64,000 nt of DNA. It comes from Owenia fusiformis (taxonomy: Eukaryota). The DNA lies in the NCBI GenBank assembly GCA_903813345.2, contig CAIIXF020000001.1:17732001-17796000 (forward strand), in the 5' to 3' direction. The notes below the pieces were generated by a model, which saw nothing but the letters and a program-made list of their open reading frames with translations, did no database searches and had not been told where the DNA came from. Shown piece after piece: positions 6,301-27,200 of the stretch; position 1 is the first letter of the stretch, and each line of letters opens with the position of its first letter. The translations under genes were made by a program, and so were the position numbers.

Positions 6301-8008
6301 CTATGATTAAACCACGTCTACAATTTACAAGTCCGTGAAACAATCAATAAAGGTGGTGACATTTTATTTTGGAGAGACACGATACAGAACAATGATAACA
6401 AAAACACTGTCTATGGTCTCTGCAAAATGTTTACCCTCCCAGTCCAATGTTCTCGAAGCATCATTGAGCTCTTGTCTGTCTGTGTTTCAGGTGTTGTGTC
6501 GATGTCTGTCTTTCCTGCAGTTGTTTGGTCATACAAGCTCAATCAGCCTACTCACCGGCATATCAATCGAACGATACTACGTCATCGTTTACCCGATCAG
6601 AAGTCGATTTTTCAACAAACGCCGTATAAAGGTCATACTCGTTATCATCTGGATCTTATCTTGTGCCTACAGTTTACCCTGGATCTTTTTCTCCGAGTTT
6701 ACCCTCAGTCCGGATGGGAAGTCATATTGCATCTACGCACAGGGAACATACAAGCTGATCAAAATATACGATACGGTTACATTTGTAATATTTTACTGTT
6801 TACCCCTTATGGTACTTGCATTCATGTATCCATGCATGGCTAGAAAACTCTACAGCCATCCTACTCTACAAGCAGATTCGAATGGCGAAGATACTAGATC
6901 AAGTATTCTTAATACAGTTCTCCGATGCTGTGGCCGACGAATGTCTTCATCCGAGAAAAAATGGACAATTACGATGCCATGTAGACGCTCTACGGCCACA
7001 TCAACGTCCTTCAGCTCATTAGAAGCCAGGTTATCTGTAGAACAAATGGATTCGGCAATGACGATACCACGCTCGGTGACTGCATCAACAATGTGCAACA
7101 CAGCGGATTCAAGACTCCCAGAGGCCTTAGATGAATCTGGTTTACTGCCTACAGATTCCAAGTCCCAGCAACCCCAAACAGACGACAGGAGTACAATTCC
7201 CATGAAGAACAGAGTCGAAAGGAATCCGAGAAAGAATGAGAAGTCCACTTTGAGGACTGATGTTGAACAAGATACGAGTTTTTCCACTCCTAAGCTTGAC
7301 ATAGTTCACAGCAAAAGTCGGGATACAGACAGATGCACTGCGTTGGCAAGACGAGGATCATTGACACACCATAGCGATGCGATCCGACCTACTGAGCTAA
7401 ATTTTGATCGTACCTCGCAAAATACCTGTCACCACCACGAACTACCAGATACTATAGCTGTGCACCCGCCAGTCGCAACCAAAAAGTCCGTTTCAAGCCA
7501 GGATTCGAACTCCTCGTTATTAAGTAGAAAATCGATGCGAAAAGGGATGCGTGTCGGAAAGGGAATGGACACCCCTTTGTTGACTCCGCAATCTGCCCAG
7601 GCAACGCATATTCAACCGGATAATCATGCTGGGCGCAAAGGAGACTCCACGATACACGGTCGTATTTTGAAGATGAAAAGAAAGGTGATTCGTCTCCTCA
7701 TGGCGATTGTAGGTACATTTGCTATTTGTGGTTTGCCTCACTATATTCGTTTAATGTGGCAATATTGGGGGAGCCTACCCATTAACAAAAACATTATTAT
7801 TTTCTTACACTTTAGTAGGATCATACTATACCTGAATACAGCCTTGGACCCGTTGCTATATGCGTTCATGTCGGACAATTTTCGACGTCAAATGCGACAG
7901 GCGTTCATGTTCCTGAGTCGACACAATACTGGGTCGAGCGTAGGCAGTAATCGTGGAAATAACCTTGTTTTTAGACGGTGCGATTCGAGGGCCGTAGTCA
8001 GGGTGTAA
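3369..8008 (+). CDS. Class A (rhodopsin-like) neuropeptide GPCR, trissin receptor-like; 3 coding exons, about 655 aa
   Basis: Exons 3369-3654, 5765-5928 and 6491-8008 join in frame through GT-AG sites (phase 1, then phase 0). The N-terminus has several NxS/T sites. Motifs: TM1 FG|N, TM2 NLFLANLAVADL, WVFGE|VLC, TM3 ISIERY, TM5 FYCLPL, TM6 FAICGLPHYIRLMWQYWG, TM7 LDPLLYAFMSDNFR. MWQYW after TM6 matches my recollection of arthropod trissin receptors. The GPCR call is firm; the subfamily call is an inference. Confidence 0.9.
4186..4340. repeat. Tandem repeat, about 45-bp unit, about 3.5 copies
   Basis: Repeated TTCAATTTTGGAA...CTAAATTGATTA...GTGCGTGTAGT in GPCR intron 1. Confidence 0.8.
4410..4790. 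repeat. Dispersed repeat fragment (other copies at about 9750-10040, and inverted at about 43975-44070)
   Basis: Shared blocks TTCAATTTTAGAATATT...CATTCCTTGTCATGTCTATTTTCTAA and CCCCTATAGATCTGATTCTGCCTTTAAT. Confidence 0.7.
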
Positions 8009-8320
8009 AAATACAACGGCCAGCTGATTTCTTAACAAGAAAACAATCAAAATCACCAGACAAAGAGCGGAGAAATCATTTTAAACGATGGCATAAAGAA
8101 TTAATTTCCTACAAAATTTCTCTGGTATACCATGTTTCGTTTGCCACCGAATCATCAATCACTTAGGACTTTATATTATATCTGTTCGTATTTATCTGAC
8201 GTAAAAATGATATGAAGAATTCTCCAACGTTTTTCCATACTCACATAAGAAGCCATCTAAATAATATCCAGTAGACATGCCATGTACCCATTAAATGTAC
8301 ATGCGATCTTATTTTGCACA

Positions 8321-9000
8321 AAGGAGTGATATCGATATGGAGAACTGAATTCAACAATGTTTTTCTCTTAAACCAATTATTGAAAACATTCTGTAAAAAC
8401 ACGGTCCTTTATGTAATGTTGACTGATTGACAACAATTTAACATTTTTGTTTTTTAGTGCAATTGTTTTTTGTTCCTTTTTACCATTTCTTGAGAATGAA
8501 ATAAAATATCTTTCCGAAGCCTGTTTGAACAAAATAGCATATACAACATTTTCTTAGACTTCCTAATATTATAGTTGTACAAAGGAAATTTTGGTTGATT
8601 TAACAAAAAGTATTCAAAAAATTAAAAACAAAAACCCCCGAAATAGATAAAAACTAAGATAAACCTTTAATTTCATTAACAAGATACTTTTTTTAAATCA
8701 ACCAAACTTTCCTTTGTACAATTACAATATTGAGAGACCTAAACATGTTGTGTCGTTTTGTTCCAGTGAGGTTCGGATAGATGTTTCATTTCATTCCGAA
8801 CATATGATACCAAGAACGAAAGAAGTGTCTGGTGTGTTTTCTTTAACAATATAGAGAAAAGTATATCTCTTTCAAATTATATGTTTACCATTCAAAAGAT
8901 GACCATTAAATTGACAATGTGTAAAATTTTCAGAATATTTTGATGGCTGGTTTAAGAGACACGTGTGTTCAAAAAGTTCGCCATATCGATACCCATCCTT
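8321..9000. mobile_element. Degenerate foldback (whole-element palindromic) MITE, probably in the GPCR 3' UTR
   Basis: TATCGATATGG near 8330 pairs with CCATATCGATA at 8981. Inner arms TTGTACAAAGGAAATTTTGGTTGATTTAA (8576) pair with TTAAATCAACCAAACTTTCCTTTGTACAA (8693-8721). Confidence 0.65.
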
Positions 9001-11255
9001 CAGTTGAAAAGTCGGTTATTTTCCTAGTCTAGCTACAAACCCTTGTGACACAAGTTGTTAGAGTAGATAGTCCAGGGTCTTGAGGCAAGATTATTATTTT
9101 CCAATCTCTGTGTCTTCTACTTCCATACAAGGAGATCAAATAACAATGATATGCTTGAGGGAACCGTGAAGGATTAATTCCAAGGTGTGCCTTGGATTAC
9201 ATTGGTGTATTCAAGTTTCAACACGCTACAATTATGTGGATGAGAGTACGTCAAATGTGATCAACCAATGTAATTATAATTATATTCAATCAATATATTT
9301 ACCTTTTAAATATAATGAAGTAACGGCTTGTTTGTGCAAATAAGATGTTGTTTGTGTAAACAGGATGTGCTATGAATGCAGCCTGTAGTTAGAATATATT
9401 GGAATTATAATAAAGATGTAGAAAGTAGAGAAACACATTATAATGCTCCGTTAATCATGAATAGTAGTATGTAGTTGAATTTTGGCACACCCTGTATCCA
9501 TACATAATTGTGAGAACAGTTTTAGATGTAAATATCGTAAGCTTTTTATATTTACATAATAAAGTAATATAAGTTACAATCACAGTGTGCAAGAACGGTT
9601 CATTTGTTTTATTGGACGGAGTAAAACATTCATAGCCGGATGTATTACCGACTTCATCCGCTATATTCTATTTATCAAATGCTTAATGACAGAATCAGAT
9701 CTAGCAAGTATATCCATCATTATCTTCTTCATGATCTTGACGCAAAAAATTCAATTTTAGAATATTCTAGGGTCATATCATTCCTTGTCATGTCTATTTT
9801 CTAAGAATGCCCAAAGTGTAAACTTTATTTGGGGAAAACTAAGATTTTTACAATAATGCGTGTTTATAAATATGGTTCATTTATATAATTTGGGAGAATT
9901 TAAACAAACAAATTCCCCCCATTTTTGTACTTTGAATCCTAAATAATAAATGACTCCCAACAATTGAAAACATATCACAGACCTTTCATTGATGGATCAA
10001 TTAAATATATCGCTTGTAATTGTGTCACCCCCCCCCCCTATAGATCTGATTCTGCCTTTAATATAAGATGGATGAACAAAACTGGTTGGTAAAATCAATA
10101 TTTCAAAAATTGCATATATGTAGGTATCCTGCATCCATCCTGTATTTGTATTCTTATAACTGTATTTCTACAGAAAAATGGAAGTTGGACGGATTTGTAC
10201 ACCATTACCAGTTTATATTCCATGTAAACCCATCTATAGAAACCATTCCGATGAACACCCTTTATATACAGAGTGGGCCAAAAACATCCAAATTTCCATT
10301 TTGCTTTAAGATGCCAATCTAGATGTATTACTTGAGGCCTAACTCAGATCACAATCATCGTTTCATCAAATATTAACCTGTACCTTTAATTTCATTCAAA
10401 ACACTGCCCTGGTGTCTTTTAAAAATTCTTATATCATGAGCTTTCAAGAAAAGGGTATGCAACTTCCAAGATTCCGTATTATCAGCATTGCCTCGAGTTT
10501 TCAAAATTGCAAAATTGGAGGAAAATGCTTTAGGATTATGTGCATGCATGTTGATAATGTGATACAAAATGGAATTCATCAAAATTATGCAAAATGCTAT
10601 TGAATGTTTGTATTCTCACACAAATTTTTTTAAACTGAATTTTAACTTATTTTCTGCTTTAGTTATATTCTAAATCAATTTTTTCTTCAAGGCAGTACGA
10701 ATATTTGATACATTTATCCATAGACGAATAGGAAAATCCTCCAAAGCCTTAAAATATGGGAGTTTAATATTTTACTGACCCCCAAAATATTGGTACCATC
10801 GGAAAGCTCTGATATCATGCATTGCAGTATCCATGAAAAATATGATAAATTATAAAGGGAAGCATGGCAATGCTCATTTTAAAGTTTTCATGTTTGTAAC
10901 ACAGAGTAGCATACCCTTCTATTGAGGCATATTATATGGCTATAGATATATGACGCGCTATTGCCGCCAGAACCACGCAAACGATCGCGAATGTTTTTTT
11001 TTAATTCCAGAGATTGATTTTAAACTGTGTGATATAGAATATGGAAATGCCCCGGACATGTTATCTGTCGAGCGTATGTATTACTTGTCGCCTAACCAAT
11101 CATTCAATAAGGAAGCTGCCCATTAATACGCCGATTAAGGAAAAGTTCTCTCGTGGCAAACCAAAAATTGAAAGCCATCGTAACATCTGAATAAGAGATT
11201 CCAACATATCATTGCATGGTTCTCCATCGATTACGCTACAAAATGTCGGAACGTC

Positions 11256-11487
11256 AGTAGTTACAGAAACGAGAGTTCTGACGCACCTTTAACATTGAGT
11301 CCTATGGGGAGGGACACGATTTTTCATAGTACCCTCCCTAACATGGGCTCCAATGGGGAGGGACATCTGTGAGCCTCCCTGAGCTCGGGAGGCACATACG
11401 GGGACCCCACCCCTCCCCCCTCGGCGTGGTGGCGTGTACATATTTCGGGAATCTCGGGCCCTAAGGTAACGGACGCCCTACCCCACG
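11256..11487 (+). repeat. Left TIR (232 bp) of the mini-Maverick
   Basis: Reverse complement of 15396-15628 apart from CTAAG-GTAAC versus CTAAGAGTAAC. GC-rich, with ATGGGGAGGGACA twice and a hairpin GCCTCCC-TGAGCTC-GGGAGGC. Confidence 0.97.
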
Positions 11488-11931
11488 TTTGTACGTTTAC
11501 TGTAAGGATACTATTCGAATTCCCGCCAAAAACAATAAATCGATAAACCAGTACGCGTCGTAAATGTCACTGCCTTATTTATAAAGTGCGGCCCAGGCGG
11601 ATTATCGATTACCTATCAACCAGGCGTTTCGTACTCGCGAGGTCTTATCGTTTTAAGGTCATCCAGCTGTCAGTTTACGAAACAAATTACTCTGGACTGT
11701 ACTTTAAAGTGCGGACCTAGCTCGATTATCGATTATCAATCAACCATCCATCAACTTTAATTAGTGTAACGTCCTTCATCGATTTAAGATCATACCGTTT
11801 AATGGATGTTACATTTGGTTGGGATAAATATTTATTTGCTAATTCGTCAACACACTTCTTTTCAAAATACATCAACTATAATACATATTTACATTATAAC
11901 ATTCAAAATTCTTCATTGAATCATACACAAA

Positions 11932-13029
11932 TTACAAAGGTATTAAATCGGAATCTTTAACCCACGAATCAAACTTTTTTGGCCAATATTGCCAACGCAC
12001 TAAATGTTCCCGTTGCCCTCGTCTAGTTCGTGTTTTCAAGATTTTTTCTACTTTCCAAATATCATCTTCATTCGCTTGTACTCTTTGAAGCTCCGATTGG
12101 TAAAAAGTACCCTTAATGTCTTCATTTTGAAAATCATTTAAACGATATAATGGGAGGCCCTGCCTAATAAAACGTTTCGTTACTTTAAAAATTTCCCCTG
12201 TCCAATGTTGGTCGTATTCTCTACTAAAAACATGTCTCGACTGGGTAATTCTTACCAGAGCTCCAATGGGGAATTTAAAGATGTGATTAGATTTGGTTTT
12301 AACGATAGTTGATTTAGGATAATACATCCGCCACCAAATAACCAATTCATCGTCTTTAGATACATTTTTAGGAGCCATTTTTATACCCCTATGCCAAGTG
12401 GCGTTATAACTCTTCACAAAGTTTTGTAAATTGTCTATAAATCTATGGTTCTGTTTGTACGTGATATACCTCATTATTTTAGTCTTTAACGTCTTTATCA
12501 ATCTTTCTGCATAGTTGGCCTTGGGGGTATTACCCGTAACAAAATGGCGGACTCCCCATCTATTCAACAATGTTTGTACAACCTTAGCGCAGAATTCTTG
12601 ACCTTTGTCCGTCCTAGTGACATCTGGTTGTCGACCTTCTTTCAATATATCATCGAAAGCCTCCGCCACTGCCTTTCCAGTTTTGGAGTGTAGCGGTCTA
12701 ACCCAGGCAAAGCGAGACATAATGTCAATCGCAACCAGGATATACTTTATCCCGTCATTCTGCGATGATATATTAGAGACATCCATAAGATCTGCATCCC
12801 ATTGTTCGTCAATATGCGAGACATATACTTTGTTACGAGCGAATCGTTTCTTATAAGGTCTCTGTAGGCCATAAGCTTCTTGATTGTCCAGCCATTTCTT
12901 TATCTGATAACGGGACAGCTGGTATTTCCCATCATTTAGTACAGCTCTATAGAGTTTGTCTGGTCCAGCAAAGGCTCCAGAATTTCGACTGTCAAAGTAT
13001 AATTTCTTTAAATAGTCTTGATATGCCAT
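11932..13029 (-). CDS. Maverick/Polinton retroviral-like (rve, DDE) integrase with C-terminal chromodomain, 365 aa
   Basis: Uninterrupted ORF with catalytic motifs QWDADLMD, RTDKGQEF and KANYAERLIKTLK, plus YNATWHRGIKMAP and WTGEIFKV. Chromodomain: WKVEKILKTR...HLVRWQYWPKKFDSWV. AATAAA lies on the minus strand at 11831-11836. Confidence 0.95.
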   Translation of the reverse strand: MAYQDYLKKLYFDSRNSGAFAGPDKLYRAVLNDGKYQLSRYQIKKWLDNQEAYGLQRPYKKRFARNKVYVSHIDEQWDADLMDVSNISSQNDGIKYILVAIDIMSRFAWVRPLHSKTGKAVAEAFDDILKEGRQPDVTRTDKGQEFCAKVVQTLLNRWGVRHFVTGNTPKANYAERLIKTLKTKIMRYITYKQNHRFIDNLQNFVKSYNATWHRGIKMAPKNVSKDDELVIWWRMYYPKSTIVKTKSNHIFKFPIGALVRITQSRHVFSREYDQHWTGEIFKVTKRFIRQGLPLYRLNDFQNEDIKGTFYQSELQRVQANEDDIWKVEKILKTRTRRGQREHLVRWQYWPKKFDSWVKDSDLIPL

Positions 13030-13088
13030 CTTACACTGTCGGAATCTGACTCCTTAATGACGATCTCTCTTTAAATTGCTAATATTTA

Positions 13089-14679
13089 TCACTCAGTGCT
13101 TGATTCAACAGCCTCGTTTTCGGATTCACTCTGTTCTTCCTCGGAGCTACTTTCCTGGTCTGTATCCTCTATAAAGACCTCATCAAACTTGTGTTTGTTT
13201 TTTAAAAGTGTCTTCCTAATGGCTAAGTTCACAGAGACACCCCTCCTCATCATATTATTTATTGAATCAATTATATTTCTGTGTAACGCATTGTCTTTTA
13301 CATCAACCGTTAGCTTGACGAATTGTTTATATCCTTTCATAAATTCTTCCTTATTCTTTGACAATAGTTTATTATCTGCCTTTTCTACAGCCTCTGTCTT
13401 ATCCATCCCTCTATCCATATACTCATCCACTTTACGTCGGTGGTCTTCCTCATTCTGTCTTATAGACCACTTCTTTAAGAATGCAAATGTTTCATTTGCT
13501 TTCAAATCACCATCATCGTCATCAACGTCATTGTCTTTGTCTTGAGGAATCTTCTCCTCAATATTTTGGGTAGATTGGGTCCTCATCCTCTTGGGTAGTG
13601 GTCCCTGATCTTGACACCACTTTTTTATATGCCTCTGTAAGTCGTGAATGCTATCAAATACTAAACCACAGTCATCACAGGATACCATGCTGTCTTCTCG
13701 AAATTCACGTTCCATGTAAGGGTAGTTCTTAACATCACTACTATTTATAAATGTTGTCGTCGGATAGTCAACTTCTGAAATACCCTGTCTTTCAAGTAAG
13801 TGTTTTGAATCATTCATTGGTTCCTTGAAGTTGCGGGAATCGTGATGACTTTCAAATTCAACTTCACTTTTAGTAAAGGCATTTGGTTTCAATCTGCTGT
13901 GCTCCGAAGTTTCTTGCTTCAGATCAAGAAGCAGGTAACCATAGGGTCGACTAGTTGCGTTGGTATATGCTCTGACCAACTTGTTTCCATTTCCGGGGTA
14001 CATCTGCCTCGATAAGAATGCCACCTGTTGGCGATCTCTCGGGTTATTAAACAGTATCATATAGTGAGAGTTTAAGCTCATCGATCTATTCATTTTTCCT
14101 TGATGATACATATTCTGGAGTAGGCATATCACAGACAGATTTCGATGGTGACTGCCTTTGCTATAGAGATCACATATCCGTTGATCATTTGTTGCCTCAT
14201 TCATAAGATCATCGAGAAGTATCAAAGTAGGAACTGAAGTGTCAAGGTATCTTGAATCATCAATATCCTCTGGTATTCCCTTCACAAATTCCAAATGTGG
14301 GTATTTTCTTAGCTCTTCGTAGGCAGGCTGCCATTGACCATAACACCAGATGATTCTTCTAGGAATTGGGGATATATACCGTTCAACATTTTTGATCAAG
14401 TGCTTCATAAGCCAGGTCTTCCCCGACGATGTTGGTCCGGCTGAAAATACAACAAAAAAATTTTTTTTTAATAAATTGACATGCTCTCTTTCTATATTTA
14501 GAAACCTATCAGACTTTTAATTTCAACATGTCCATGCCTATACCTGCTATCATAGTAAACGGATGTTTCAGCATAACATCAGACTGATGCATTTTTTCTC
14601 CATGAAACTTATTCATATGCCTTGATAGGTTATCACCTCTCGTAAAATTCACACTACACTCAGAACAATTGAAAGACAT
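13089..14679 (-). CDS. A32-like/FtsK-HerA DNA-packaging ATPase fused to C2H2-type zinc fingers; 2 exons, about 495 aa
   Basis: Exon 1 (14679-14544) reads MSFNCSECSVNFTRGDNLSRHMNKFHGEKMHQSDVMLKHPFTMIA. After intron 14543-14441 (GTATAG...TTTTCAG), exon 2 (14440-13089) restores KHPFTMIAAGPTSSGKT (Walker A). Also present: Walker B LILLDD, the GSHHRNLSV..LLQN motif, PYGYLLLDL, a second Zn finger CDDC..F..HDLQRHIKKWC, and an acidic tail. The ORF track shows only the 439-aa downstream part. Confidence 0.9.
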
Positions 14680-14849
14680 GTTGTCTGTTCAAGATCTATC
14701 AGTAAAATGACTCAAAACATGGACAACTTAAAATATATAAGAATATTCTAATGTGCAGTATTGTGATTGGTTCAAAATGTGTCAATTAAGATCAATTATA
14801 AACATAAACAGGCATTTATGACATTATAAACTATTGAATATTAAAGTAA

Positions 14850-15175
14850 AGGGAGGGGAGGAGGTTTGGAAGATGGAGAAGAGACAGGAGGAGGTTGGGT
14901 GGAAGTAGGAGGAGGTATGAGGTAAGGAGGAGGTAGGGAGGAGGTGGGAGGAGGTAAGGAAGAGGTTTGAGGAGGTAAGGAGGAGGTAATGATGAGGTAG
15001 GGAGGAGGTGGGAGGAGGTAAGGAGGAAGCGGGAGGAGGTAGAGAGGAGGTGGGAGAAGGTAAGGAAGAGGTGGGAAGAGGTAAGGAGGATATAGGGAGG
15101 AGGTAATGATGAGGTAGGGAGGAGGCGGGGGGAGGTAAGGAGGAGGTAAGGAGAAAGTGGGAGGAGGTAGGGAAA
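14850..15175 (+). repeat. Polypurine GGAGGAGGT(A/G)-type tandem repeat inside the mini-Maverick
   Basis: About 325 bp of roughly 10-11-nt units such as GGAGGAGGTAA and GGAGGAGGTGG, almost free of C. Confidence 0.9.
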
Positions 15176-15390
15176 AGATGGCTAACTTCCGTTTTAAAAC
15201 CTACCCAGGCCGACTAAAAGATGCCTCACTTCCGCTATGATGTCACCCTCTTGCCCAGACAGATGCAAAATGGCTGACTTCCTGCTAGAAAGCTTCAAAA
15301 TGGCCGACTTCCGGTTAAATGGCTGACTTCCGGGCTGACTTCCGGTCAAAATGGCTGACTTCCTGTCAAAATGGCTAACTTCCGGAACGT
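15175..15390. promoter_or_regulatory. Subterminal array of AAAATGGC(T/C)(G/A)ACTTCC units (YY1-like and ETS-like motifs)
   Basis: About 7-8 copies directly inside the right TIR, upstream of the ATPase gene. CCAAT (about 14766-14770, minus strand) and TATATA (about 14734-14739) lie nearer the ATG. Function is inferred only. Confidence 0.45.
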
Positions 15391-15395
15391 ATAGT

Positions 15396-15628
15396 CGTGG
15401 GGTAGGGCGTCCGTTACTCTTAGGGCCCGAGATTCCCGAAATATGTACACGCCACCACGCCGAGGGGGGAGGGGTGGGGTCCCCGTATGTGCCTCCCGAG
15501 CTCAGGGAGGCTCACAGATGTCCCTCCCCATTGGAGCCCATGTTAGGGAGGGTACTATGAAAAATCGTGTCCCTCCCCATAGGACTCAATGTTAAAGGTG
15601 CGTCAGAACTCTCGTTTCTGTAACTACT
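15396..15628 (-). repeat. Right TIR (233 bp) of the mini-Maverick
   Basis: Reverse complement of 11256-11487; ends in ACTACT followed by the TSD AACGTC. Confidence 0.97.
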
Positions 15629-18211
15629 AACGTCGAAGGTACGATTTTGCGAACAGATAGTTCAGAAGACAACAGAATCGTCGATTTAACTCCTCACTTA
15701 AGTTACATAGACGGTATTTCGAAAAACAATTAAGATCTGCACTTTTAACCCATACCTTAAGTTAGGAATTAAATCGACGATTCTGTTGTCTTCTGAGCTA
15801 TTTTTCGCAAATATGTCCCTTTTCCAAAACATATGATACTGATATACGTTTGTGAGAAAAAATGTCGTGGGGATTCTGCCTAGAACGCCTGAATTAAGGA
15901 AAAAGAAAAATCGTACCTTCGACGTTCCGACATTTTGTTACCGAAACGAACCGTTTCGGTAACCATCGTAATCGAGCGGATCACCATTCACCAGTGCATG
16001 TGTTACTTCCATTTAATGTGATATTTTCAAATATTTAAAGCCAATATATCGTCATTATTTATTGGGTATTAATATACAGATATAAATTGTTTTTTGTAAG
16101 ACTTATTACAGTACTCTATTTGATTTATAAGGATTAAATCCCTTCTATTTTAACTGAAGTAAGCAGTTTTTATCGATGATAATAATATTAATTTTTTCTC
16201 ATTGTGGAGGAATTAATCAAATATCGTTTCAATTATTCAATAGAGATATATACTATTATAATTTATTTCATTGACATAAAATACATCTACTTTACAGATA
16301 ACTACAAACAGACAAGAGCGCATATTGACACAGTGTCTAATTTGTTTTTCCTTTTCCATAATTCAAATCAACACAATATGATTATTCTCAGTCTAATCTT
16401 AATGAACATTAAAACAACTAAAACTAGTTAAATTGTGAAAGTGAAAATGTAAAGGAAATGTTGAACTTTTCAATTTTTGTTTATGTTCTTTCAATGTTAG
16501 CGACGTGACAATCCATTCCTGTTATGTTTGTACTGCAAGGGATAATCAAGCATCTTGTACTTTCAACACTCCCAAACCATAAATGTATCATTAGAAGGCT
16601 TTTAGTGTAACCAATGCAAATAGCGGCTATCAGCGACCGGGTTGATTGCAATTTAGAAGCAATGGCTGACCTAAATAACGATTTAATCTAGCTATTAAAG
16701 CAGCAACTCACCCACTATCGAGGTTGGAATTGTAAATAGCGAAGTACATCTGGCGCATGCGCATAAACGCAAACACATTTTAAGTGTGTTCAATCATGTG
16801 CATTAAAAGCCACATGATCGCTGTTAGGGTTTGTTCGTAAATTACAACTTCAAACTTACGAGTTAGTTTATGCAAATTAATAGGTTAATCCGGTAGCCGT
16901 CAGTTGCATTCGTGAACAACTCCTAAGTTGAACACTTTTAGAGGTACCAAAGGTCTTCTACTTAGACAGGTTTTACTGTATTCGCACGGTTCTGGCGGCG
17001 ATACCGCGTCATATACGATAACAATAGCAAATTAAATCCCACATATCCAGCAAAAATAATTATATTTATATGCCAGTTGTGACAAAATTAAATAAAAATA
17101 TTCCTATGTATTTGGCACATTCTACCAGTATATAATTTGGAAATGGTCAAACATAATGTACAGTATAAACAGTGCACGCATGACACATATTCTTAGCCAT
17201 TGTACATAACTTTACAATTATAATAATTTCATACATCAGTTTTGTCGGATCTTATGTCCTCGAATGTCCAAAGTAACACACTCTATTATTGGATAGTTCA
17301 TTACTGACTGCATTTCATATTTACAATATATTTACAATATACAACATTTACAGTGACTTGCTAAATATCTACAGTTAAATTACTGAACAAACTTTATATC
17401 CCTTGGCAACTAGCGTTGATCCCATGTGAAAAGGGGTTCTAGTTTAATTCAAGGAATCAGCGTTGAATGCCTGAATGCCTTCTAAACTAGCACTAAAACC
17501 CCTAGAACTGGCTCGGCAAGGTGGTAATAATGAATTATAACTAGAAGAGCGATATAGCAACTCCACTGAGTAATAAGTCCCACCAACAAAACTGTATTCT
17601 CAGATCTTTGTTCGTTTTGACCAATTCTATGCAATAATTTTTTTAGCAGTTGTAAAATGCATGCACTCTGCACCATTCCTTTTGAATAAAGACATTTTGG
17701 AAGATACAATAAACATGTATTTCTGAATTCTAAACCTTAACTACCCTAAACAATTATCATGCAGTATACAAAGTTATTGGCAAAACGTCATCGTGAGCAT
17801 TTTGAAATAAAAGGCCACTTTGAATTGAAAGATTAATAGATGCCTGAAAAAAAGTTGACTTCTCTTATCACATACATAAGTCTGAGCATGAGATTTATAA
17901 TTCTTATGTAAAAAACCATTGAATGACGATGTGTTATTTGAATGGAATGATACACAGTGCATGCACTTTAATAACACCAAGGGCTGCATTGTTCCAGTCT
18001 TAGGCAGATGACGTAAAGTAGAGCACAACTTTGCTATATGTGATCGATGTACACTGTATGTAGAAGGTGTACCGTTTGACGAATAACCAAAATGGTCTAG
18101 CATTTGTTAGTTTAAAGAATGGTCCTAATGAATCTTGCTGTAGCTGATGTAAGTTTAATGATTCAACATGAATGATCTAGCGTGTAGCTTTAATTGTAGA
18201 GGAATTTGAAA

Positions 18212-21200
18212 CTATCTGTATGCAGTGTTACTTCCGGGTCTCATCCAACTGTCATCCTGTAGGGTTGCACCTGATGGAGGTCTGAAATACAACAAACAAT
18301 ATTATAATCACACTGCCATATTTCTCACTCTCTGATTGGACATTTCCTATAATAGCTTCCGAAATGGGTAAATAACATGCAGGAATATAATTGATATCTG
18401 AGGTGAGCGGCTGATATATATATCTCGCTGAGGTGAACGGGACATATATATATCACCCGCTAATCAACAATCCCCGGGAATTTCTTTCGGTGCTTTTTTG
18501 AATTCCCGGGATATACTTTTGGCTCTATTTGATAAATACGAATTTCATACACTGTTAAATGTTAAGAGCTGTCGAGGTTTTAAAAAACATAAATTGTTGA
18601 GGACTTTAAATTGAGATAAAATATTCATGTTCTGATTGTAATTATCGTTTGTAATTATTACACTAGGGTTCCCTTACATTCAATGCATATTCAATTCTCA
18701 TCATCTACTAAGTACATGTATAGGATAAATCCGTTATATTGAATGCTCGATTTTTGATACAGGGTATTTCCCTCGGATATACCCTGTATCAAAAACCTCC
18801 CATTAAATAACCTCTATATATTGACCAGACAAATGTCTCATATTTCTCAGATACTATTTTTTCTTATTCTTATTTTATTTAGAGGGTTGATTTATGAAAA
18901 TATGACTGTTAAACATATAACCTAACCTGTTATGAGTCTGCTTTGCCATAAAACGATCAAGTATGTCATCTGGATCTCCCACAGATATTTCATCTCCTGG
19001 AAAACATAATTAACGCCTCTGGGATCAGTCAAGAGTGTTCGGATTAGCAGGTGTTCACATTCCAATTTTTTTCAATATATAGGTCAATGAGAGGTGAAAC
19101 ATTTGGACCGAAAGAAAGTGTTCACATTGAGAGATGTTCCGATAAGTCAGTTGTTAGGATATATATATATATACAGGTTTCACAATATTGTGGTCTCTGA
19201 AACAACTACAAAAACAGCAACTTTTTGGAGTAGCAAATACTACTGACCAAAATATTTTTTCAACTCATTATTCATTTCATGAAAAAAATAAATTGGGCAC
19301 TCAAAAACGTTTATCTCCTTTAAGCAAAATCTATAACCATGACATGACATGAAACCATATTAGAAATCCCTTCTGGGGTTGAAGTCCTATGCTCAATTGG
19401 CATCAGCCTATAACATTTGAACCCAATCAATGAATCAGAATTTGAGGTACTGCCTGGACAGACAAACAAATGAACAGAAGGTTGGGAGGATGGACAAATA
19501 GTTATTCAGACATACGGAAAAGACAGCTTCTCTATATCCTTCCTAGACTTTGTTCAGTGGGATGATCATACTGCATGATAACTTTAACAGCAAATAGTAA
19601 TTTGTCGGATTCACACATGGCTAGTTTTTATGTTATTAAACTATATTCATTTAAATAATCACACAAAAGCAGTAACTGCTTCAGTGCATAATGAGAAACA
19701 TTTTTATTACAATGTTGTCAAGAATTAACAGTTTCCTGGTCAATTAATTTATTTATTCACCTAGAATCACCTCATGTTTACCACTTTTAAAACTTATTGT
19801 ACCATTTAATAAATAATAAACAACACTCACTGTATTCCCCTTTCAATTAGTAAAGAAAATCATTAAATTGATCTTATATAATTAAATAAATTTTTTGACA
19901 GAACTTGTGTTAATTAAGATTTATATTTCTCGAGATAAGCCTAGAAAAATTCATGTGGTTGTAAAAAAAATGGTGAATAATTTTCTAATGAAGCAGATAA
20001 ATTGACAGCAATCAACGAAGGATTTACATGTAAACTCAATTGATTTTGTACTTTTACAGGAAAAGTTTCACACATTGACATCATCGATTTTAAAGTGGCT
20101 AATTATAATATCAACAAGTTAACTTTGTGTGGAAAAGTTAAGCAGTTAATCCAGCAGAAGTTTTCCTGAAAAAGTGCTGGCAAGAAAAACAGATAATTCT
20201 AAGTCACTGGTCTTCAAGTTCAGAAGTCCATTTAGTAAATCAGCCCTCAAAGAGCTTGAAATCATCTGTACAAAATACACTAAACCTACCTCTTTTTAAA
20301 TGTGGAACCCTTTTAAAGAAATTACAGGAACTTAAATGGTACTTTACCTGCTAGAGTTTTTAGCTTGCGTAGCCGCTCCTCATTCTTGCGAGTAATTCTG
20401 TCGGGATCGATGCTGGTGGTAGATCCCATATTAGTCCCCAGGGAAATATTGTCCAAGTTAGTGTAGGGAGAGGGTTGTCTTGGGGTGGCCTGAAAAGTAC
20501 ATTCAGAAGCTACTTCGTTTGTCTCATACACCACAATATTTGATGCAAGAAGTTTGAGCTTATAAGAGAAAATGAGGAGAAACATACTTTTAAACAGGGT
20601 GATCCCAAAATGCAAACCATCTTACTTTACAACATATATTCAACTTATATATTATCAAAGACAGAAATTGCATTTTCATGTTATTCTGAATAACAGTATG
20701 ATTCAGACAAGGCATTTAATGTCATGTTAAACATGCAAAATGTCACTTCTGCCATTTGTTACAGATGCTGATCAAACACCAACTGCCAATACCATTCACA
20801 AAAAAGTTGGCGACAATAACAATATGTCACCACTTTTAATTTGCCTTAAATTTGTTCATGCTTAATAAATTTTAAAACATACATCTGTTTCCGACATTAG
20901 CCACTACTCAACATTGTTGACAATAAAACACTATACAACAAAGTGTGCTCTTTAACAGAAAAACTACAAACTGACAAGCCAATCAGCTGCAGCATTCCAC
21001 AAAGTATACAATCTGAGCCAATCCATCAATTGCCAAATACTGCCAACCCCACTAAAAGTCCCACTGGATCTAGCAGACCCCCAGCAGCAAGTCCCAGACT
21101 TAACGCCACAAATAGACCCCCTGCAGCTCACCAAGGTAACAGCACATCTAAACCCCCCAAGTCAACCCCAACCCACGGAAAAGGCAAACGCAAAACAGTA

Positions 21201-24200
21201 CATATAATGTACTCTAGCAATGGGAAAGGTCTAGCAGGAGTCATGATGAGTAAAGATAATGCCATTTCTGCAACCTCATCAGTATATAGTGGTGGAAGAA
21301 TAGAGACAGGCACATACAGCTTAGAGAAAGGTGATATTAAGGAGTCCACTGATTTCAAGTTCATAGGACTTGGGACAAATAATATTCCAGCTGATCATCC
21401 ACAAGATATGGTATATGAACTAAAGAACTTAATGCAAACTGCGAAAAATAAGCATCCTAGATCAAAACTAATCTTGTGTGGTATTCATCACCGTGGCGAC
21501 AGTCGTGACAGCGGAACGAGAGATATTTGGAATTCAAAGATTGATTATGTAAATCATGAGATGCGATCCTTTTGTACAAAGCAAGGACATGGATTTATAG
21601 ATATCAATGAAGTCAATGGATCAACAGTTCGAAATCCTTGCATGAAAGTCTTATACAAAGACATGTTACATTTCAATCACTTGGGACGCAGCAGACTAGT
21701 TGACGCTATGATCTCTATAATGAGACAAGAATGCCCCACCACTTATGCACAGGCTGCAGCCTATCCTTCATCTGTAAACCCTCAAAGAGCTTGGTCTCAT
21801 GCCAAGTTTTAGACTGTGAGTGTGGTGTAGCATCAGCATCTGATCAAATTAGAGATTATGTCTCTAAAACTGTATATGTTGACACTCAAAGATCTGTACA
21901 TAATGTAAAAAATGCACATTATCCTGAAACACATGTTAATATTAATGTTAAAACTAGGAATCATATAACATATGTAAATAATAACTGTGATGATTATTCA
22001 TATTCTGTGTGTGTTGATCCAGCAACACATGTTAAGGAAGGTAGCCAATATGAGATTGATTCAACACTTGATTCTAGTAAATCATCAGAATTGTGTACTG
22101 GTTTCAATTTAGAAACACATTTTAACGTAGAAACAGAAACAAATGTCAATTCAGAAACACATTCTAATATTGGAGAAGTCTTATCTGCAGAGAAAAATCT
22201 TTCAGTACTCCTTTGGAATATTAATAAATTATCTGACAAATTGCATGATGGGAAAGATGTACAAACTTTTTTACAAGATTATCAAATTATTTTATTGAGT
22301 GAGACATGGCTTTCTCCAATAGAAGATATTGTTTTTGAAGGTTATGCCTGTTACAACCTTGCTCGTAATTCAAATATTAGTGCAAATAATGGTCATAACT
22401 CAGGTGGGCTTGCAGTGTTGATCAGTGATGAATATAGTACAGGTGGTATTGATATACTTCCACAATCTCATGACTTTTTCGTCTGGATAAAATTAAGTTC
22501 CACTTATTTTAATATTGAAGAAGATTTATTTATATGTTTTATCTATTTGCCATTTAAAGGCTCTGTGTATGAATCTGCGACAGGGCCAAATAATATTGAC
22601 ATACTAGAAATATCAATAGCTCATTATCAAACCTTGGGGAAGACAATAATTTGTGGTGATATGAATGCCCGAACAGCTAATCTTACTGATAGTAACATAG
22701 ATATACTTGGTAGTAATGGTGATTTACCAGTAGATATGTTTAGCATTAATGAGTCAATGCTTCCACAAGAAAATGGAAACAAAATTGATGATCTTTTCAG
22801 AACACGTAACTCTATGGATAAAAATGTAAGGGCAATTTCGCAAACACACGGGAGAGAATTTTTATCATTATGTAAATCAGCAAACATGAAAATACTCAAT
22901 GGGCGTCTCTATAGTGACAAAGAAGTTGGAAAGTACACTTGTTATCGGAACTTCACTCATAATTGTGAATCAAACTCTGACCTTGGTAAATCTGTTATTG
23001 ACTATGTAGTAATTCAACCTATTATAATTCCATTGATATCAGATTTTAAAGTACATGATAGAAGGGTAGAATCTGATCATGCCCCTTTGCATTTTTCACT
23101 TTCACTGACAAAATCAGGAAAATCACGTTTTAAAGCTAGTGTATCAGATCAAAGAAAGAATGCATTTAATATTAATTCTTTTAAGTCGTACAAATGGGAA
23201 GCGGCACAGACAAATGAATTCATCCAAAAACTTAGTGATCAAACTAGTAATGAATTGTTGACCACTTTCTATACTGAATTGGGCTGTTCTAATATTGGGA
23301 CAGATGAACTATTAAGTAAACTTTTAAATGTAATACACCATGCTTGTGAGGGAACATTTAAACTTAAAGAATTAAAATCAAACAAAAGCAGTAAATTTCC
23401 TATAAATGCTTGGTTCACTGATGAATGTAAAATGTTGAAAAGAAAAGTTCATGATGCTATCAAAAATAAACTTGATGAAACTCATATTAACCAAATTATC
23501 AAAGAATACAATCACTAAACAGCGGGAAAAAAGAAGGTTTAAAGCAGGAATGTTAGAGAGTTTGGTAGTTAATAGGTCTAAATCTTCAACCGATTTTTGG
23601 AAACTTATTAATGCAATGCCAGGAAATATAATTAGAGATATATCAGTACCCCCTGAGGATTTATTAACCTATTTTCAAAATTTGGCAAAGCCTCCAAACA
23701 TGGATTATTTTGATAATGATGCACTTCAAAAGATGAATGAATTTATTCAAGATAGCATTCAAAATAACTCTGATGACATTAATTTAAATCTTTGTTATAA
23801 TATTATAGATGGCAGAATCAGTCAAATTGAGGTGTACAATGCTTTTAAAAAAGTAAATTCTCATAAATCAGCTGGCATTGATGGTATCCCATCGAACATA
23901 ATTAAGAGTTGTGAAGTACTTATTCCAGATTTTACAGCACTTTTTAATGTTATTTTCGACAGCGGTGAATACCCACGTGACTGGAGCATTGGTATGCTAA
24001 GTGCTCTCTTTAAACAAGGAAGTCGTTTTAAAGCAGATAACTACAGGGGTATAAATGTATTAGCTTGTATTGGTAATATATTTGATTCTGTAATTCAAAA
24101 TAGACTTGTTTTTAATGCACAGGTACAAAATTCTCAAGATCCTCTGCAAGGTGCATATAAAGAAAATAGCCGAACAATTGATAACATATTTATATTACAG

Positions 24201-27200
24201 ACATTAGTTAACAAATCTAAACTGCTTAAAAAAACTCTTTTTACATGTATGGTTGACTTCAAGAAAGCGTTTGACTATATTGATAGGTCAGTCCTGTTAT
24301 ACAAACTCTGTAAGAGCGGTGTAAAGCCCAATAGCAAAATGTACAAAATCATTGACAGTATGTTCGTCAAATCTCAATCTTGTCTTAAGTTGAAAAATGG
24401 AGTATCAGACTATTTTAAAACAGATGTTGGAGTTTTACAAGGGAGTGTTCTCAGTACCTTCTTATTTAATCACTTTATAGATGATCTTGCACTATATTTA
24501 CCAACGCACTGTGGAGTAATTTTAAATGATAAGAGGCTTAACCACCTTCTATGGGCAGATGACCTCATATTGATTTCAGAATCCAGTGAAGGATTGCAGA
24601 CATTACTTGACGCACTTTTTACTTTCTGTAAGACTAATAGGTTAATTGTCAATATAATGAAAACTAAAGCATTAATCTTCAATTCCAAAAGATCTTTCAA
24701 ATTTGAATTTAATGAAAAAAGTATCGAATGTGTTAATGAATACAAATATTTAGGTCTCATTCTCACCAATAACAACAGTTTTGATATGAACACTAAATAT
24801 CTTAAAGAACAATCAAGAAAGGCTCTTTTTAAGATAAAACAGCAATATAAGAAGTTTAATGATGTGCCACCAGATGTAGCTCTTCATCTGTTTAATGCTT
24901 TGGTCAGTCCAATTTTATCTTATGCATGTGAAATATGGTATGATAAAAAACAAATGAAAGCAATTGAATCCATACATTTGTCTTTTTTAAAGTCAACATT
25001 AGGTGTCAAATCACAAACTGCAAGCCCTGCTGTGTATGGCGATCTAGGCAGGTACCCATTGTCAATCAAATTTGAGTGTTATATTATAAAATATTGGCTT
25101 AGACTCCTAACATTTCCAGAATCAAGTGTATTAAACCAAGCCTATTTATATGATAGAGATATTCAAGAGTTAGGATTCAAAAGTTGGTCTAGCAAGGTCT
25201 ATGATATACTCAGAAAATGTGATTTATTGGATTATTGGAATGACCAAAATCTGAATACTGACATTCTAGTGAGCATGGTAGAAAAGAAGTTGAAGGTATT
25301 ATTTGTAGAAAAATGGAAAAATGATTTGAACATTTATCCTATACTGAGAACGTATAAATTGTTCAAAAAAGATTTTAGAATTGAATTATATTTGAAATTA
25401 GATAATAAAAAGTATAGATTGGCGATAAGTAGATTTCGAATGAGTTCTCATCGATTGGCGATTGAGACTGGAAGACATGCAAAGCCAAAACCAAAACCTA
25501 GAGAGGAAAGATTATGCAATACCTGTAAACATATAGAGGATGAATGTCATTTCCTTTTAACTTGTACAAAGAATGATGAGCATAGACAATTATTGTACAC
25601 TAAGGCTCGTGAAATTCTAAGTAACTTTGACCTCAATAGTGAAAATTTATTTGTCAATCTCATTTCAAGTAAAAACTTAACATTACAAAGACACATTGGA
25701 AAATTCATTTATCATTCATTTAAGAATTTGTAGTCAGAATGCAGGGTATGTGCACCACACTTTAAATGTAACCTTGTCCTTTCATCATGATGTATACTAC
25801 CTTTATTTTGGGTTTTTGTATATCTCGTATATATTTTTGTACTTTTGTATTAGTTAGTATTTGTAGTTTAGATACTTAGTTTTTTTCATAGTTATGACTA
25901 ATGTAATCATGTTATGATACAAGATGTCAATAAAAGTTATATATATAACAAGAGGAAATTCCGTCATAATTAACAAAAAGAGACATATATTCCAAATTAA
26001 GATATGTGACATAAAATACACAATTCAAGCAATCAGGTTATGTCAGTATAACATATTATAAAACATACTTGAGTGAAAACAACATCCTTCCAGACAACTC
26101 TAATTACTGTTAAGATGAGGTTGAAAAGCATCCCACTCAGATTACACATAATTTTGTGTTTAATAGCTTTTGAAATGGTGTCCCCTGCGGAAGCTATCAT
26201 ATCAAGAGATAATATCAGTAATAATACATTTGGTAATACCCTTGGTGTACCTTTCCAATATACCCTTGAAATGTTATCATGTTCAGAGTATTAAGAATGC
26301 ACTCTTGGGGAGATATCATATCTAGAATATAAGTTATGCTCCCCTGTGTATTAAGAATAAACCCTTAAAGAGTTTTCATATTCAGAGTACTAAGAATGTA
26401 CCCTTGGAGAGTTATCATATTCAGAGTATAAGTTATGCCCACTTGAAGAGTTATCTTATTTAGAGTATTAAGAATGTACCCTTGAAGAGTTGTCATATTT
26501 AGAGTGCTAAGAATGTACCCTTGGAGAGTTTTCATAATCAGAGTATTAAGAATGTACCCTTGAAGAGTTATCATATTTAGAGTATTAGTTATGCCCCTTG
26601 AAGAATTCCAGTACTAAGAATGTACTCTTAAAGAGTTTTCATATCTAATGTATTAAGAATGAACCATTGAAGTGTTATCATTTGGAGTATTAAGAATGTA
26701 CCCTTGGGGAGCTGTCATATTTATTCCGTCTTTTTTGTCTCGCTGACTCATTCCGCCTGCCAAGATTTTCAAAGTCATCAGGGAAACCACTGGCTGAGTT
26801 ATCCACACCTGAATATACAAACATTTCATTGAAAGTGGGAGCAAAGGAGTATAAATGTTGGAAGCAATTATTTCATTAAACATGGTAATATGTTCCTAAC
26901 AAAACATCAAAATTGTGAAAAATATTTGAAAGTTATTGGAGGTTTATCTCGCAGAAATAACACTGTCAATGTGCGGTGCACTTGAACGATGGAAGGGTTG
27001 ATCATTGTTTATTTTCCAGAGCTGTAATGTTCTTTCAAGAGTTGTACTTTGCCTTCAAGAGCTTTACTGTCCTCTCAAGAGCTGTTCTGGACATTTGGAA
27101 ATACTGTATTGATAATTGCCAATTTTATATCTACATACCAACATAAGCAGTTTCTGCATCTAGCATGGAGCCTGGGGTATCTTCTCGAATCAATCCTATA

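Follow-up and report, generated by a model that had tools for sequence, protein, structure and literature searches.

A 4.4-kb Maverick derivative encoding an integrase and an A32-like ATPase, and its probable two-gene lineage

Mavericks, or Polintons (polintoviruses, adintoviruses), are elements of 15-20 kb that make 6-bp target-site duplications (TSDs), end in long terminal inverted repeats (TIRs) beginning with AG, and encode a retrovirus-like integrase with a chromodomain (c-integrase), an A32-like ATPase, a protein-primed DNA polymerase (pPolB), capsid proteins, and a protease. Long TIRs with 5'-AG termini are named as a Maverick feature in PMC6839031, and PMC5499653 defines Polintons by the joint presence of pPolB and integrase. 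Here we describe a 4.4-kb element in a 64-kb stretch of Owenia fusiformis DNA (contig CAIIXF020000001.1, positions 17,732,001 to 17,796,000), hereafter the window. It shares with Mavericks the 6-bp TSD, the long AG-ended TIRs, the chromodomain c-integrase, and the A32-like ATPase, but carries no pPolB, capsid proteins, or protease, and its ATPase is long (495 aa), with two C2H2 zinc fingers and an extra helical domain. Since the definition of Polintons requires both pPolB and integrase, the element is a Polinton derivative rather than a strict member. We conclude that it is a young and intact copy of an old, conserved two-gene lineage in bivalve-associated DNA, and not a chance deletion.

Two other kinds of described elements come close. 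Mavericks with internal deletions, such as those in 10.1101/2025.02.07.637071 and two of the loci analyzed below (L052/L054), are likewise short, bounded by TIRs, and devoid of the replication module. They have idiosyncratic breakpoints and gene fragments, whereas the layout of our element is conserved throughout a clade in which neither gene is broken and both are under selection. Ginger1, Ginger2/TDD, and GingerRoot are TIR elements moved by an integrase-related DDE enzyme, and they also have no polymerase. They differ from our element in having a single transposase gene, no ATPase, and other termini; GingerRoot has TA..TA termini and lacks a chromodomain, and PMC6839031 gives it 6-bp TSDs and TIRs of 100-150 bp. 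The integrase of our element is of the Maverick clade, in trees computed without Ginger proteins. Full-text literature searches gave no published description of an ATPase-plus-integrase Maverick lineage.

The ends of the element (Table 1) are those of a Maverick. A previous reading of the window, made from the letters alone and hereafter called the sequence-only reading, had reported AGTAGT termini, TIRs of 232/233 bp differing by one indel, and a perfect 6-bp TSD, and our analysis reproduced all three. When globally aligned, the TIR arms show 210 identical bases, one 1-nt indel, and 22 identical bases; a repeat search paired 215 nt at 100% complementarity with a 32-nt continuation, and blastn paired 243 nt at 98.4%. 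An empty paralogue of the target repeat lies 270 bp away in inverse orientation (reverse complement of 15891-15965), and there 18 nt of the left flank and 14 nt of the right flank are contiguous around one AACGTC. Because this uninterrupted paralogue has a single AACGTC between the joined flanks, the duplication at the element is not due to chance. The 6-bp TSD, the AG...CT ends, and the long TIRs show that a Maverick-type integration put the element in place, and the real TSD together with the near-identical TIRs supports the previous claim of a recent insertion. No second copy of the element is present in the window. The insertion took place within another repeat family, which occupies window positions 15650-15990 and 11227-11255. 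This family is extremely abundant in the reads (summed contig depth of 206,242-958,544 in run X8, described below, vs around 60-85 for the unique flanks) and has its own hairpin arms of 49 nt (15657-15705 / 15753-15801).

Two genes lie between the TIRs, both on the minus strand. The integrase matches the Pfam families rve (1.2e-11) and Chromo (2.2e-06), shows no variation at D80, D141, and E175 when aligned with 21 relatives, and is nested among the integrases of loci bearing pPolB and major capsid protein (MCP) genes. Ginger1-type integrases carry an HHCC zinc finger and YPYY/GPY motifs on either side of the DDE core; inspected by eye, without a Ginger alignment, the N-terminal 70 residues of the window integrase gave no evident H..H..C..C pattern. 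The spacer that separates the genes contains no AATAAA-type or poly(A) signal, and the gap is similarly short in related loci, which hints at a bicistronic transcript of the kind seen in some other mobile elements.

The second gene encodes a predicted product of 495 aa that begins with a zinc finger and the ATPase domain; a disordered linker then leads to a second C2H2-like finger, which is followed by a helical domain and an acidic tail. The sequence-only reading had described two uninterrupted genes. The layout stands, but the ATPase is interrupted by a predicted intron of 103 nt that splits off the zinc-finger exon. The first 45 codons (14679-14545) form this separate exon 1, and exon 2 opens with the Walker A motif. 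The predicted join restores HPFTM-x3-GPTxxGKT, which is found in one piece in homologues, and these carry the finger, HPFTM, and Walker A in one chain. The finger of exon 1 matches zf-C2H2 (3.1e-05) at 24.6 bits, just below the cut-off of 25.2. Besides the intron and its finger exon, the previous reading had missed the conserved C-terminal domain and the occurrence of a long ATPase beside capsid genes (locus L001), both described below. The motifs GPTSSGKT, LILLDD, GSHHRN, and QN, which we take to be the Walker A, Walker B, H-H-R-N, and Q-N motifs of A32-like ATPases, are invariant or nearly so across 20 sequences.

We compared an AlphaFold model of this protein with known and predicted structures; in its ATPase part the predicted local distance difference test (pLDDT) is about 60-86. 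The model had 31 matches in BFVD at E <= 0.001 (best 1.2e-06), among them giant-virus A32-like packaging ATPases, adenovirus IVa2, an adintovirus FtsK-like protein, and Sputnik V3, and it matched the STIV2 B204 packaging NTPase among PDB structures (E 6.4e-04). Judged by this modeled fold, the protein is an A32-like ATPase of the FtsK-HerA packaging type. At the sequence level, it has no match to PF04665 (Pox_A32) at E <= 0.1 and nothing meaningful among PDB chains. PF04665 is present in the precomputed annotation of many of its homologues; a relative in locus L077 scores 19.8 bits (cut-off 22.8) and the short form of L020 scores 30.3. The nesting of the integrase among Maverick integrases and the A32-like fold of the ATPase support the derivation from Mavericks proposed before.

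The C-terminal domain of the ATPase is modeled with a pLDDT of 78 (90-98 in the helical part). Its best VIA score was Z 7.2, for helical hairpins only; it had no BFVD match at E <= 0.001, and the Atlas comparison matched the zinc finger only. In these three comparisons the modeled domain appears to be novel, with no recognizable fold relative. It was found in 318 cluster representatives at E <= 0.001, of which 74 at 1e-10 or better. Among the 150 matches listed, it stands at the C-terminal end of longer proteins of full-length size, and many others are proteins of around 100-250 aa consisting of this domain alone. We also considered whether it derives from the small open reading frame (ORF) found between ATPase and integrase in full Mavericks. 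This origin was rejected as undetectable: a hidden Markov model of the domain matched long ATPases only, and hhalign against 17 such small ORFs gave a probability of 1%.

There is no room for pPolB between the TIRs, and tblastn with three pPolB queries (one of them an ORF of locus L026 without a PF03175 match) found no match in the element or in the 64-kb window. The L026 ORF (7798-13101, minus strand) encodes 1,768 aa, with weak C2H2 matches at residues 54-73 and 121-141, neither of which reaches its Pfam cut-off, so that zinc fingers occur on more than one protein of these elements. Queries for the capsid module (three MCP and one for the ORF following MCP) likewise gave no tblastn match to MCP, minor capsid protein, or protease in the element or the window. 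The remaining ORFs of the element are an antisense frame of 108 aa, a frame of 69 aa in the TIR, and low-complexity frames in a purine-rich repeat, whose minus-strand translation is of low complexity and lacks a start codon. The claim that there is neither room for nor a remnant of other ORFs was borne out. Rfam gave nothing within 11000-16000.

Just inside the right TIR lies an array of five AAATGGCNGACTTCC motifs, next to which the repeat search found a looser sixth copy. With at most one mismatch, the motif has six matches in the window, whereas chance predicts none; five lie in the array and one in the integrase gene at 12542. It also occurs at the right end of L050, a full-length Maverick locus with a capsid gene.

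To place the element among its relatives, we collected homologues of both proteins. The ATPase had 824 homologues at E <= 0.001 out of 3,457 candidates (best 38-40% identical) and the integrase had 357 out of 1,118 at the same threshold (best 55-56% identical). The named sources are all bivalves, or bins of bivalve symbionts that evidently contain host DNA. A gene model of Mya arenaria fuses a long ATPase to the C-terminus of an integrase, which places the two genes side by side and in one orientation in this bivalve as well. Scans of IMG/VR with alignments of the ATPase and the integrase gave no relative. We examined 80 metagenomic loci around integrase relatives and 4 around ATPase relatives, which were scored with the window proteins and with pPolB, capsid, and capsid-module queries drawn from the loci themselves. 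Full Maverick loci carry pPolB (PF03175), a short ATPase of 220-250 aa, one or two small ORFs, and the integrase, with a double-jelly-roll capsid gene 0.7-1.9 kb beyond the latter. In 14 of the 80 loci, the long ATPase with its C-terminal domain abuts the integrase across a gap of around 50-140 bp (59 bp in the window). None of these related two-gene loci extends to both ends, and they reach at most 628 bp upstream of the ATPase domain. An unassemblable repeat upstream would cause this short reach. We found no TIR pair in them except in the decayed L056 (55 nt, 85%). The relative L077 has an inverted repeat (95-269 / 12617-12793, 95%) without a TSD.

The loci contain other features of interest. 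L034 (1917) and L072 (2444) are 91% identical over 1.9 kb, and the similarity ends exactly at the integrase stop; this break may mark the end of an element, a point of recombination, or a subsequent insertion. In a two-gene sub-lineage (L068-L073, e.g., L068 2420-2539), the integrase match is split by a gap of around 75-120 nt at query residue 143-150, a sign that this gene may have an intron. L052/L054 (1-4328) is a deletion derivative, a unit of around 4.3 kb with 206-nt inverted repeats (87%); its short ATPase is accompanied by an integrase interrupted by stops, and a fragment of pPolB lies on the opposite strand. L056 is a decayed unit of around 2 kb. In L020, an ORF resembling the TATA-binding protein (8299-8868; PF00352, 5.1e-24) directly follows the integrase of a full-length Maverick locus.

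We built an integrase tree of 80 rows, i.e., 79 loci and the window, with X in place of internal stops; the match of L084 was too short for this locus to be included. The tree contains a clade of 20 rows (SH-aLRT support 98) made of 13 two-gene loci and 7 contig-limited loci, none of them bearing capsid genes. Among loci extending at least 1.3 kb past the integrase, capsid or polymerase genes lie downstream in 0 of 8 in the two-gene clade and in 28 of 33 others; when 2 kb or more is required, these numbers become 0 of 4 and 24 of 26. Conversely, where at least 1.5 kb is available upstream, the long ATPase is present in 8 of 8 loci of the clade and in 0 of 21 others. A one-off deletion derivative would have a layout unshared by its relatives, and this one recurs in the 14 loci mentioned above and in the whole integrase clade. 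The sequence-only reading had also proposed to estimate the ratio of non-synonymous to synonymous substitution rates (dN/dS). We tried 14 pairs of relatives (NG86); dS was saturated in 11, which gave no ratio and had dN of 0.15-0.56. The others gave 0.086 for the integrase (L005-L077), 0.19 for the ATPase (L070-L072), and 0.19 for integrase exon 2 (L035-L068). As estimated from these sequence pairs, the ATPase and the integrase are both under purifying selection in the two-gene lineage. Selection at 0.09-0.19 and the recurrence of the ATPase-integrase layout in a clade without capsid or polymerase genes support the view that this is a streamlined element and not random decay. We consider it very probable that the element belongs to a real two-gene lineage.

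The long ATPase has a link to capsids. In L001, the capsid gene is followed by the next capsid-module ORF and, 120 bp on, by a long ATPase that has both the N-terminal finger and the C-terminal domain; there is no integrase in the 3.5 kb after it. The other capsid-bearing loci carry ATPases of 220-250 aa. The long forms are united in a single clade of the ATPase tree (support 87), at the base of which stands the window protein. Within it, the ATPases of L001 and of L003, a locus with remnants of pPolB nearby, are placed among those of the two-gene loci (support 99). Hence, the long ATPase was not invented by the two-gene elements. Its architecture is the same in the capsid-linked form of L001 and in the two-gene forms.

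Sequencing reads were used to assess the element outside the assembly. Between 69 and 80% of the words sampled from the element and its 500-bp flanks are present in 20 runs from six studies, and no RNA run is listed among those that contain the stretch. We then compared the reads of two runs, X8 and X1, with the element and 2-kb flanks; the type of both runs was guessed, and depth is not copy number. In X8, four contigs identical to the element have a depth of 1,498-1,947, compared to 59-84 for four flank contigs, i.e., around 25-fold. One of these element contigs spans the spacer between ATPase and integrase, and one covers the integrase stop and the sequence 3' of it. In X1, a contig linking the interior of the left TIR to the integrase matches with no difference. 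These data suggest tens of near-identical copies sharing the internal junctions. They are not what one would expect of a lone copy that differs from a full-length Maverick by one deletion, the outcome that was to overturn the previous reading. At positions 12591 and 14798, the A of the window is replaced by G in both runs. Raw RNA reads over the element are thin (depth of around 0.1-7 per bin, in parts of two runs), and they may reflect read-through, given that this strand is also covered in the flanks. Neither the empty-site joint nor, in RNA reads, the ATPase intron joint was among the 15 joints listed of 114. Close to the element, contigs from both DNA-type runs, as well as a few RNA reads, skip a stretch of 106 bp (10718-10825) with the ends CA..TG. 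This probably reflects a small mobile element or an insertion/deletion polymorphism, and not an intron.

How does such an element spread? We tentatively favor a helper-dependent, satellite-like Maverick derivative, and give the full mechanism a probability of about 0.45. The integrase of the element would join the TIR ends to new sites. Its chromodomain may bias insertion towards repeat-rich chromatin, which may explain the landing in a repeat whose contig depth reaches 958,544 in X8; the idea of chromodomain targeting is cited in PMC6839031. Both genes would probably share one upstream promoter and be transcribed into a spliced RNA, which may be bicistronic. A helper Maverick would supply the protein-primed polymerase and the capsid, and the element's own zinc-finger ATPase would act on the subterminal AAATGGCNGACTTCC array, securing the packaging of the element DNA. 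Because the element cannot copy itself or build particles, it would most likely spread as a satellite-like hitchhiker of full-length Mavericks carrying the same long-ATPase clade. A helper-dependent life is favored because the packaging-type ATPase is unchanged in form from that of the capsid-linked relative.

The proposed packaging step follows the example of adenovirus IVa2 and of satellites that carry a packaging specificity of their own. Phage satellites (P4, SaPIs/PICIs) are small integrating elements with their own integrase and packaging-specificity factor that use the capsid and replication of a helper. They are a working analogy only, since proteins and hosts are unrelated and we infer the helper relation of our element. 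Adenovirus IVa2 is among the fold matches of the ATPase, and the adenovirus packaging domain is a repeat array beside one terminal repeat, a layout like that of our element. The two sets of repeats have no sequence relation.

Several observations weigh against a helper-dependent satellite. The integrase of the window falls just outside the two-gene clade in the free tree, in a weak grouping with L051 and the capsid-bearing L027; however, a tree holding it with the two-gene clade was not rejected (p-AU 0.917) and was 34 log-likelihood units above the quick free search, for a group named after the tree was seen. The signal for copy number comes from one run of guessed type, and X1 shows no excess of depth in the element (300-521) relative to the flanks (94-506). 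No helper was found in the window, which has no other Maverick gene. At 4.4 kb, the element is far below the size usually given for Mavericks (15-20 kb). The AAATGGCNGACTTCC array resembles what we take to be a YY1/ETS promoter, which would need no packaging role. The short upstream reach of the related loci means that the absence of upstream genes is shown for the window copy alone. Finally, a helper is not strictly required, since integrase-only DNA transposons exist, as described for GingerRoot in PMC6839031.

This last point leads to an alternative that we regard as unlikely, yet the best of the others: an autonomous capsid-free transposon without a helper, where the integrase would work as a DDE transposase on the TIRs and the ATPase as an accessory factor. 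Movement would be by cut-and-paste or copy-out, with repair and replication by the host, and the former packaging ATPase, fingers and C-terminal domain included, would handle ends or target in an ATP-dependent manner. In its favor, exactly two genes persist over deep divergence (integrase identity of 45-56%, dS mostly saturated), the integrase clade has no capsid-bearing member, and the depth of one run indicates around 25 near-identical copies. PMC6839031 describes in GingerRoot a comparable combination of an integrase-type enzyme, TIRs, and 6-bp TSDs with no polymerase. The TIRs contain paired 27-nt sub-repeats, as often found in transposase-binding ends, and the predicted C2H2 fingers suggest sequence-specific DNA binding. 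The working analogy would be with MuA/MuB of Mu, TnsB/TnsC of Tn7, and IstA/IstB of IS21, in which the gene of an rve-fold DDE enzyme lies beside that of a P-loop ATPase. However, MuB, TnsC, and IstB are of the AAA+ type, whereas the ATPase of our element is by fold of the FtsK-HerA/A32 type and matches viral packaging ATPases. Moreover, its domain architecture is the same in the capsid-linked L001, so that nothing marks a changed function, and we know of no excision activity in Maverick integrases. On this rather unlikely reading, animals would harbor an autonomous transposon in which an FtsK-HerA/A32 packaging ATPase was exapted to assist a retroviral-type integrase in an ATP-dependent way. 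Derived from a Maverick that lost its replication and capsid modules, it would stand in eukaryotes for what Mu, Tn7, and IS21 are elsewhere, and would long have been spreading in bivalve genomes.

It is more improbable still that the element is an ordinary non-autonomous deletion derivative, one of the remnants that recur from full-length Mavericks with the long ATPase beside the integrase, its genes being intact through youth. Units of this kind exist among the relatives (L052/L054 and L056), and polymorphic polinton variants lacking polB are described in insects in 10.1101/2025.02.07.637071. Yet no full-length parent with such an ATPase-integrase adjacency occurs among the loci examined, even if the long ATPase is also found in capsid-encoding DNA (L001). 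The window integrase is placed beside the capsid-bearing L027 in the free tree, but the clade with 13 two-gene loci has no capsid-bearing member. The tight junction of 50-140 bp recurs at 45-56% protein identity, and the dN/dS of 0.09-0.19 indicates that the genes are maintained in the two-gene lineage. Lastly, an assembly artefact, or a part of a larger composite with other genes outside the TIRs, is very improbable: the flanks are highly repetitive and the insertion is inside another repeat family, but the perfect TSD and the empty-site paralogue delimit the unit exactly, independent runs from 6 studies contain 69-80% of the words, contigs from two runs agree fully with internal segments, and there is no Maverick gene elsewhere in the window.

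The features of the element are collected in Table 1. Two other features, both on the plus strand outside the element, mark the window as animal DNA. An open frame of 565 codons, counted from stop to stop (6311-8005), contains a seven-transmembrane receptor domain of the rhodopsin family (PF00001, 5.1e-30). At 20901-25730 there is a retrotransposon resembling a long interspersed nuclear element, with an ORF similar to GDSL esterases followed by endonuclease/exonuclease/phosphatase and reverse-transcriptase domains.

Table 1. Features of the two-gene element and its insertion site, in window coordinates.
Feature	Position	Strand	Description	Basis
Left TSD copy	11250..11255	.	AACGTC	read in sequence
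Element proper	11256-15628		4,373 bp; ends AGTAGT...ACTACT (AG...CT)	
Left TIR	11256..11487	+	232 nt; starts AGTAGT	repeat search, blastn, global alignment
Sub-repeats of left TIR	11290-11316, 11339-11365		27 nt	repeat search
Candidate polyadenylation signal	11831..11836	-	AATAAA type; around 100 nt past integrase stop	likeness to the consensus
c-Integrase gene	11932..13029	-	365 aa; N-terminal domain, rve core, C-terminal chromodomain	ORF, Pfam, alignment
Spacer, ATPase stop to integrase start	13030..13088	-	59 bp	ORF map
ATPase exon 2	13089..14440	-	Walker A, Walker B, GSHHRN, second C2H2-like finger, helical C-terminal domain, acidic tail	
Predicted ATPase intron	14441..14543	-	103 nt; GT..AG; phase 1	sequence and restored homologue motif
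ATPase exon 1	14544..14679	-	start codon, C2H2 zinc finger, HPFTMIA	ORF, Pfam, homologues
Putative TATA-like motif	14734..14739	-	TATATA; 60 nt upstream of ATPase ATG	sequence only
Purine-rich tandem repeats	14903..15173	.	GGAGGAGGT-type; periods 21/32/117	repeat search
Motif array just inside right TIR	15268..15383	.	five AAATGGCNGACTTCC motifs	repeat and motif search
Right TIR	15396..15628	-	233 nt; ends ACTACT	repeat search, blastn, global alignment
Sub-repeats of right TIR	15519-15545, 15568-15594			repeat search
Right TSD copy	15629..15634	.	AACGTC	read in sequence
Empty-target paralogue (outside element)	15907..15949	-	one AACGTC; inverse orientation	

Mavericks and Polintons stand at the boundary between viruses and transposons, and the interconversion of the two is an open question. 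A long-lived lineage that shed polymerase and capsid yet retained the packaging-type ATPase and the integrase would be either a satellite-like parasite, the first one of an animal Maverick, or a two-component transposon of a new type. In 10.1101/2025.04.19.649669, polinton-derived regions are reported to be most abundant in the genomes of bivalves; elements of the two-gene kind may explain part of this load, and also part of the many gene models named "zinc finger" or "integrase" in bivalve annotations. With two proteins and ends of 233 bp, the element makes a small and tractable system for studying how the integrase and the ATPase of Mavericks act on DNA.

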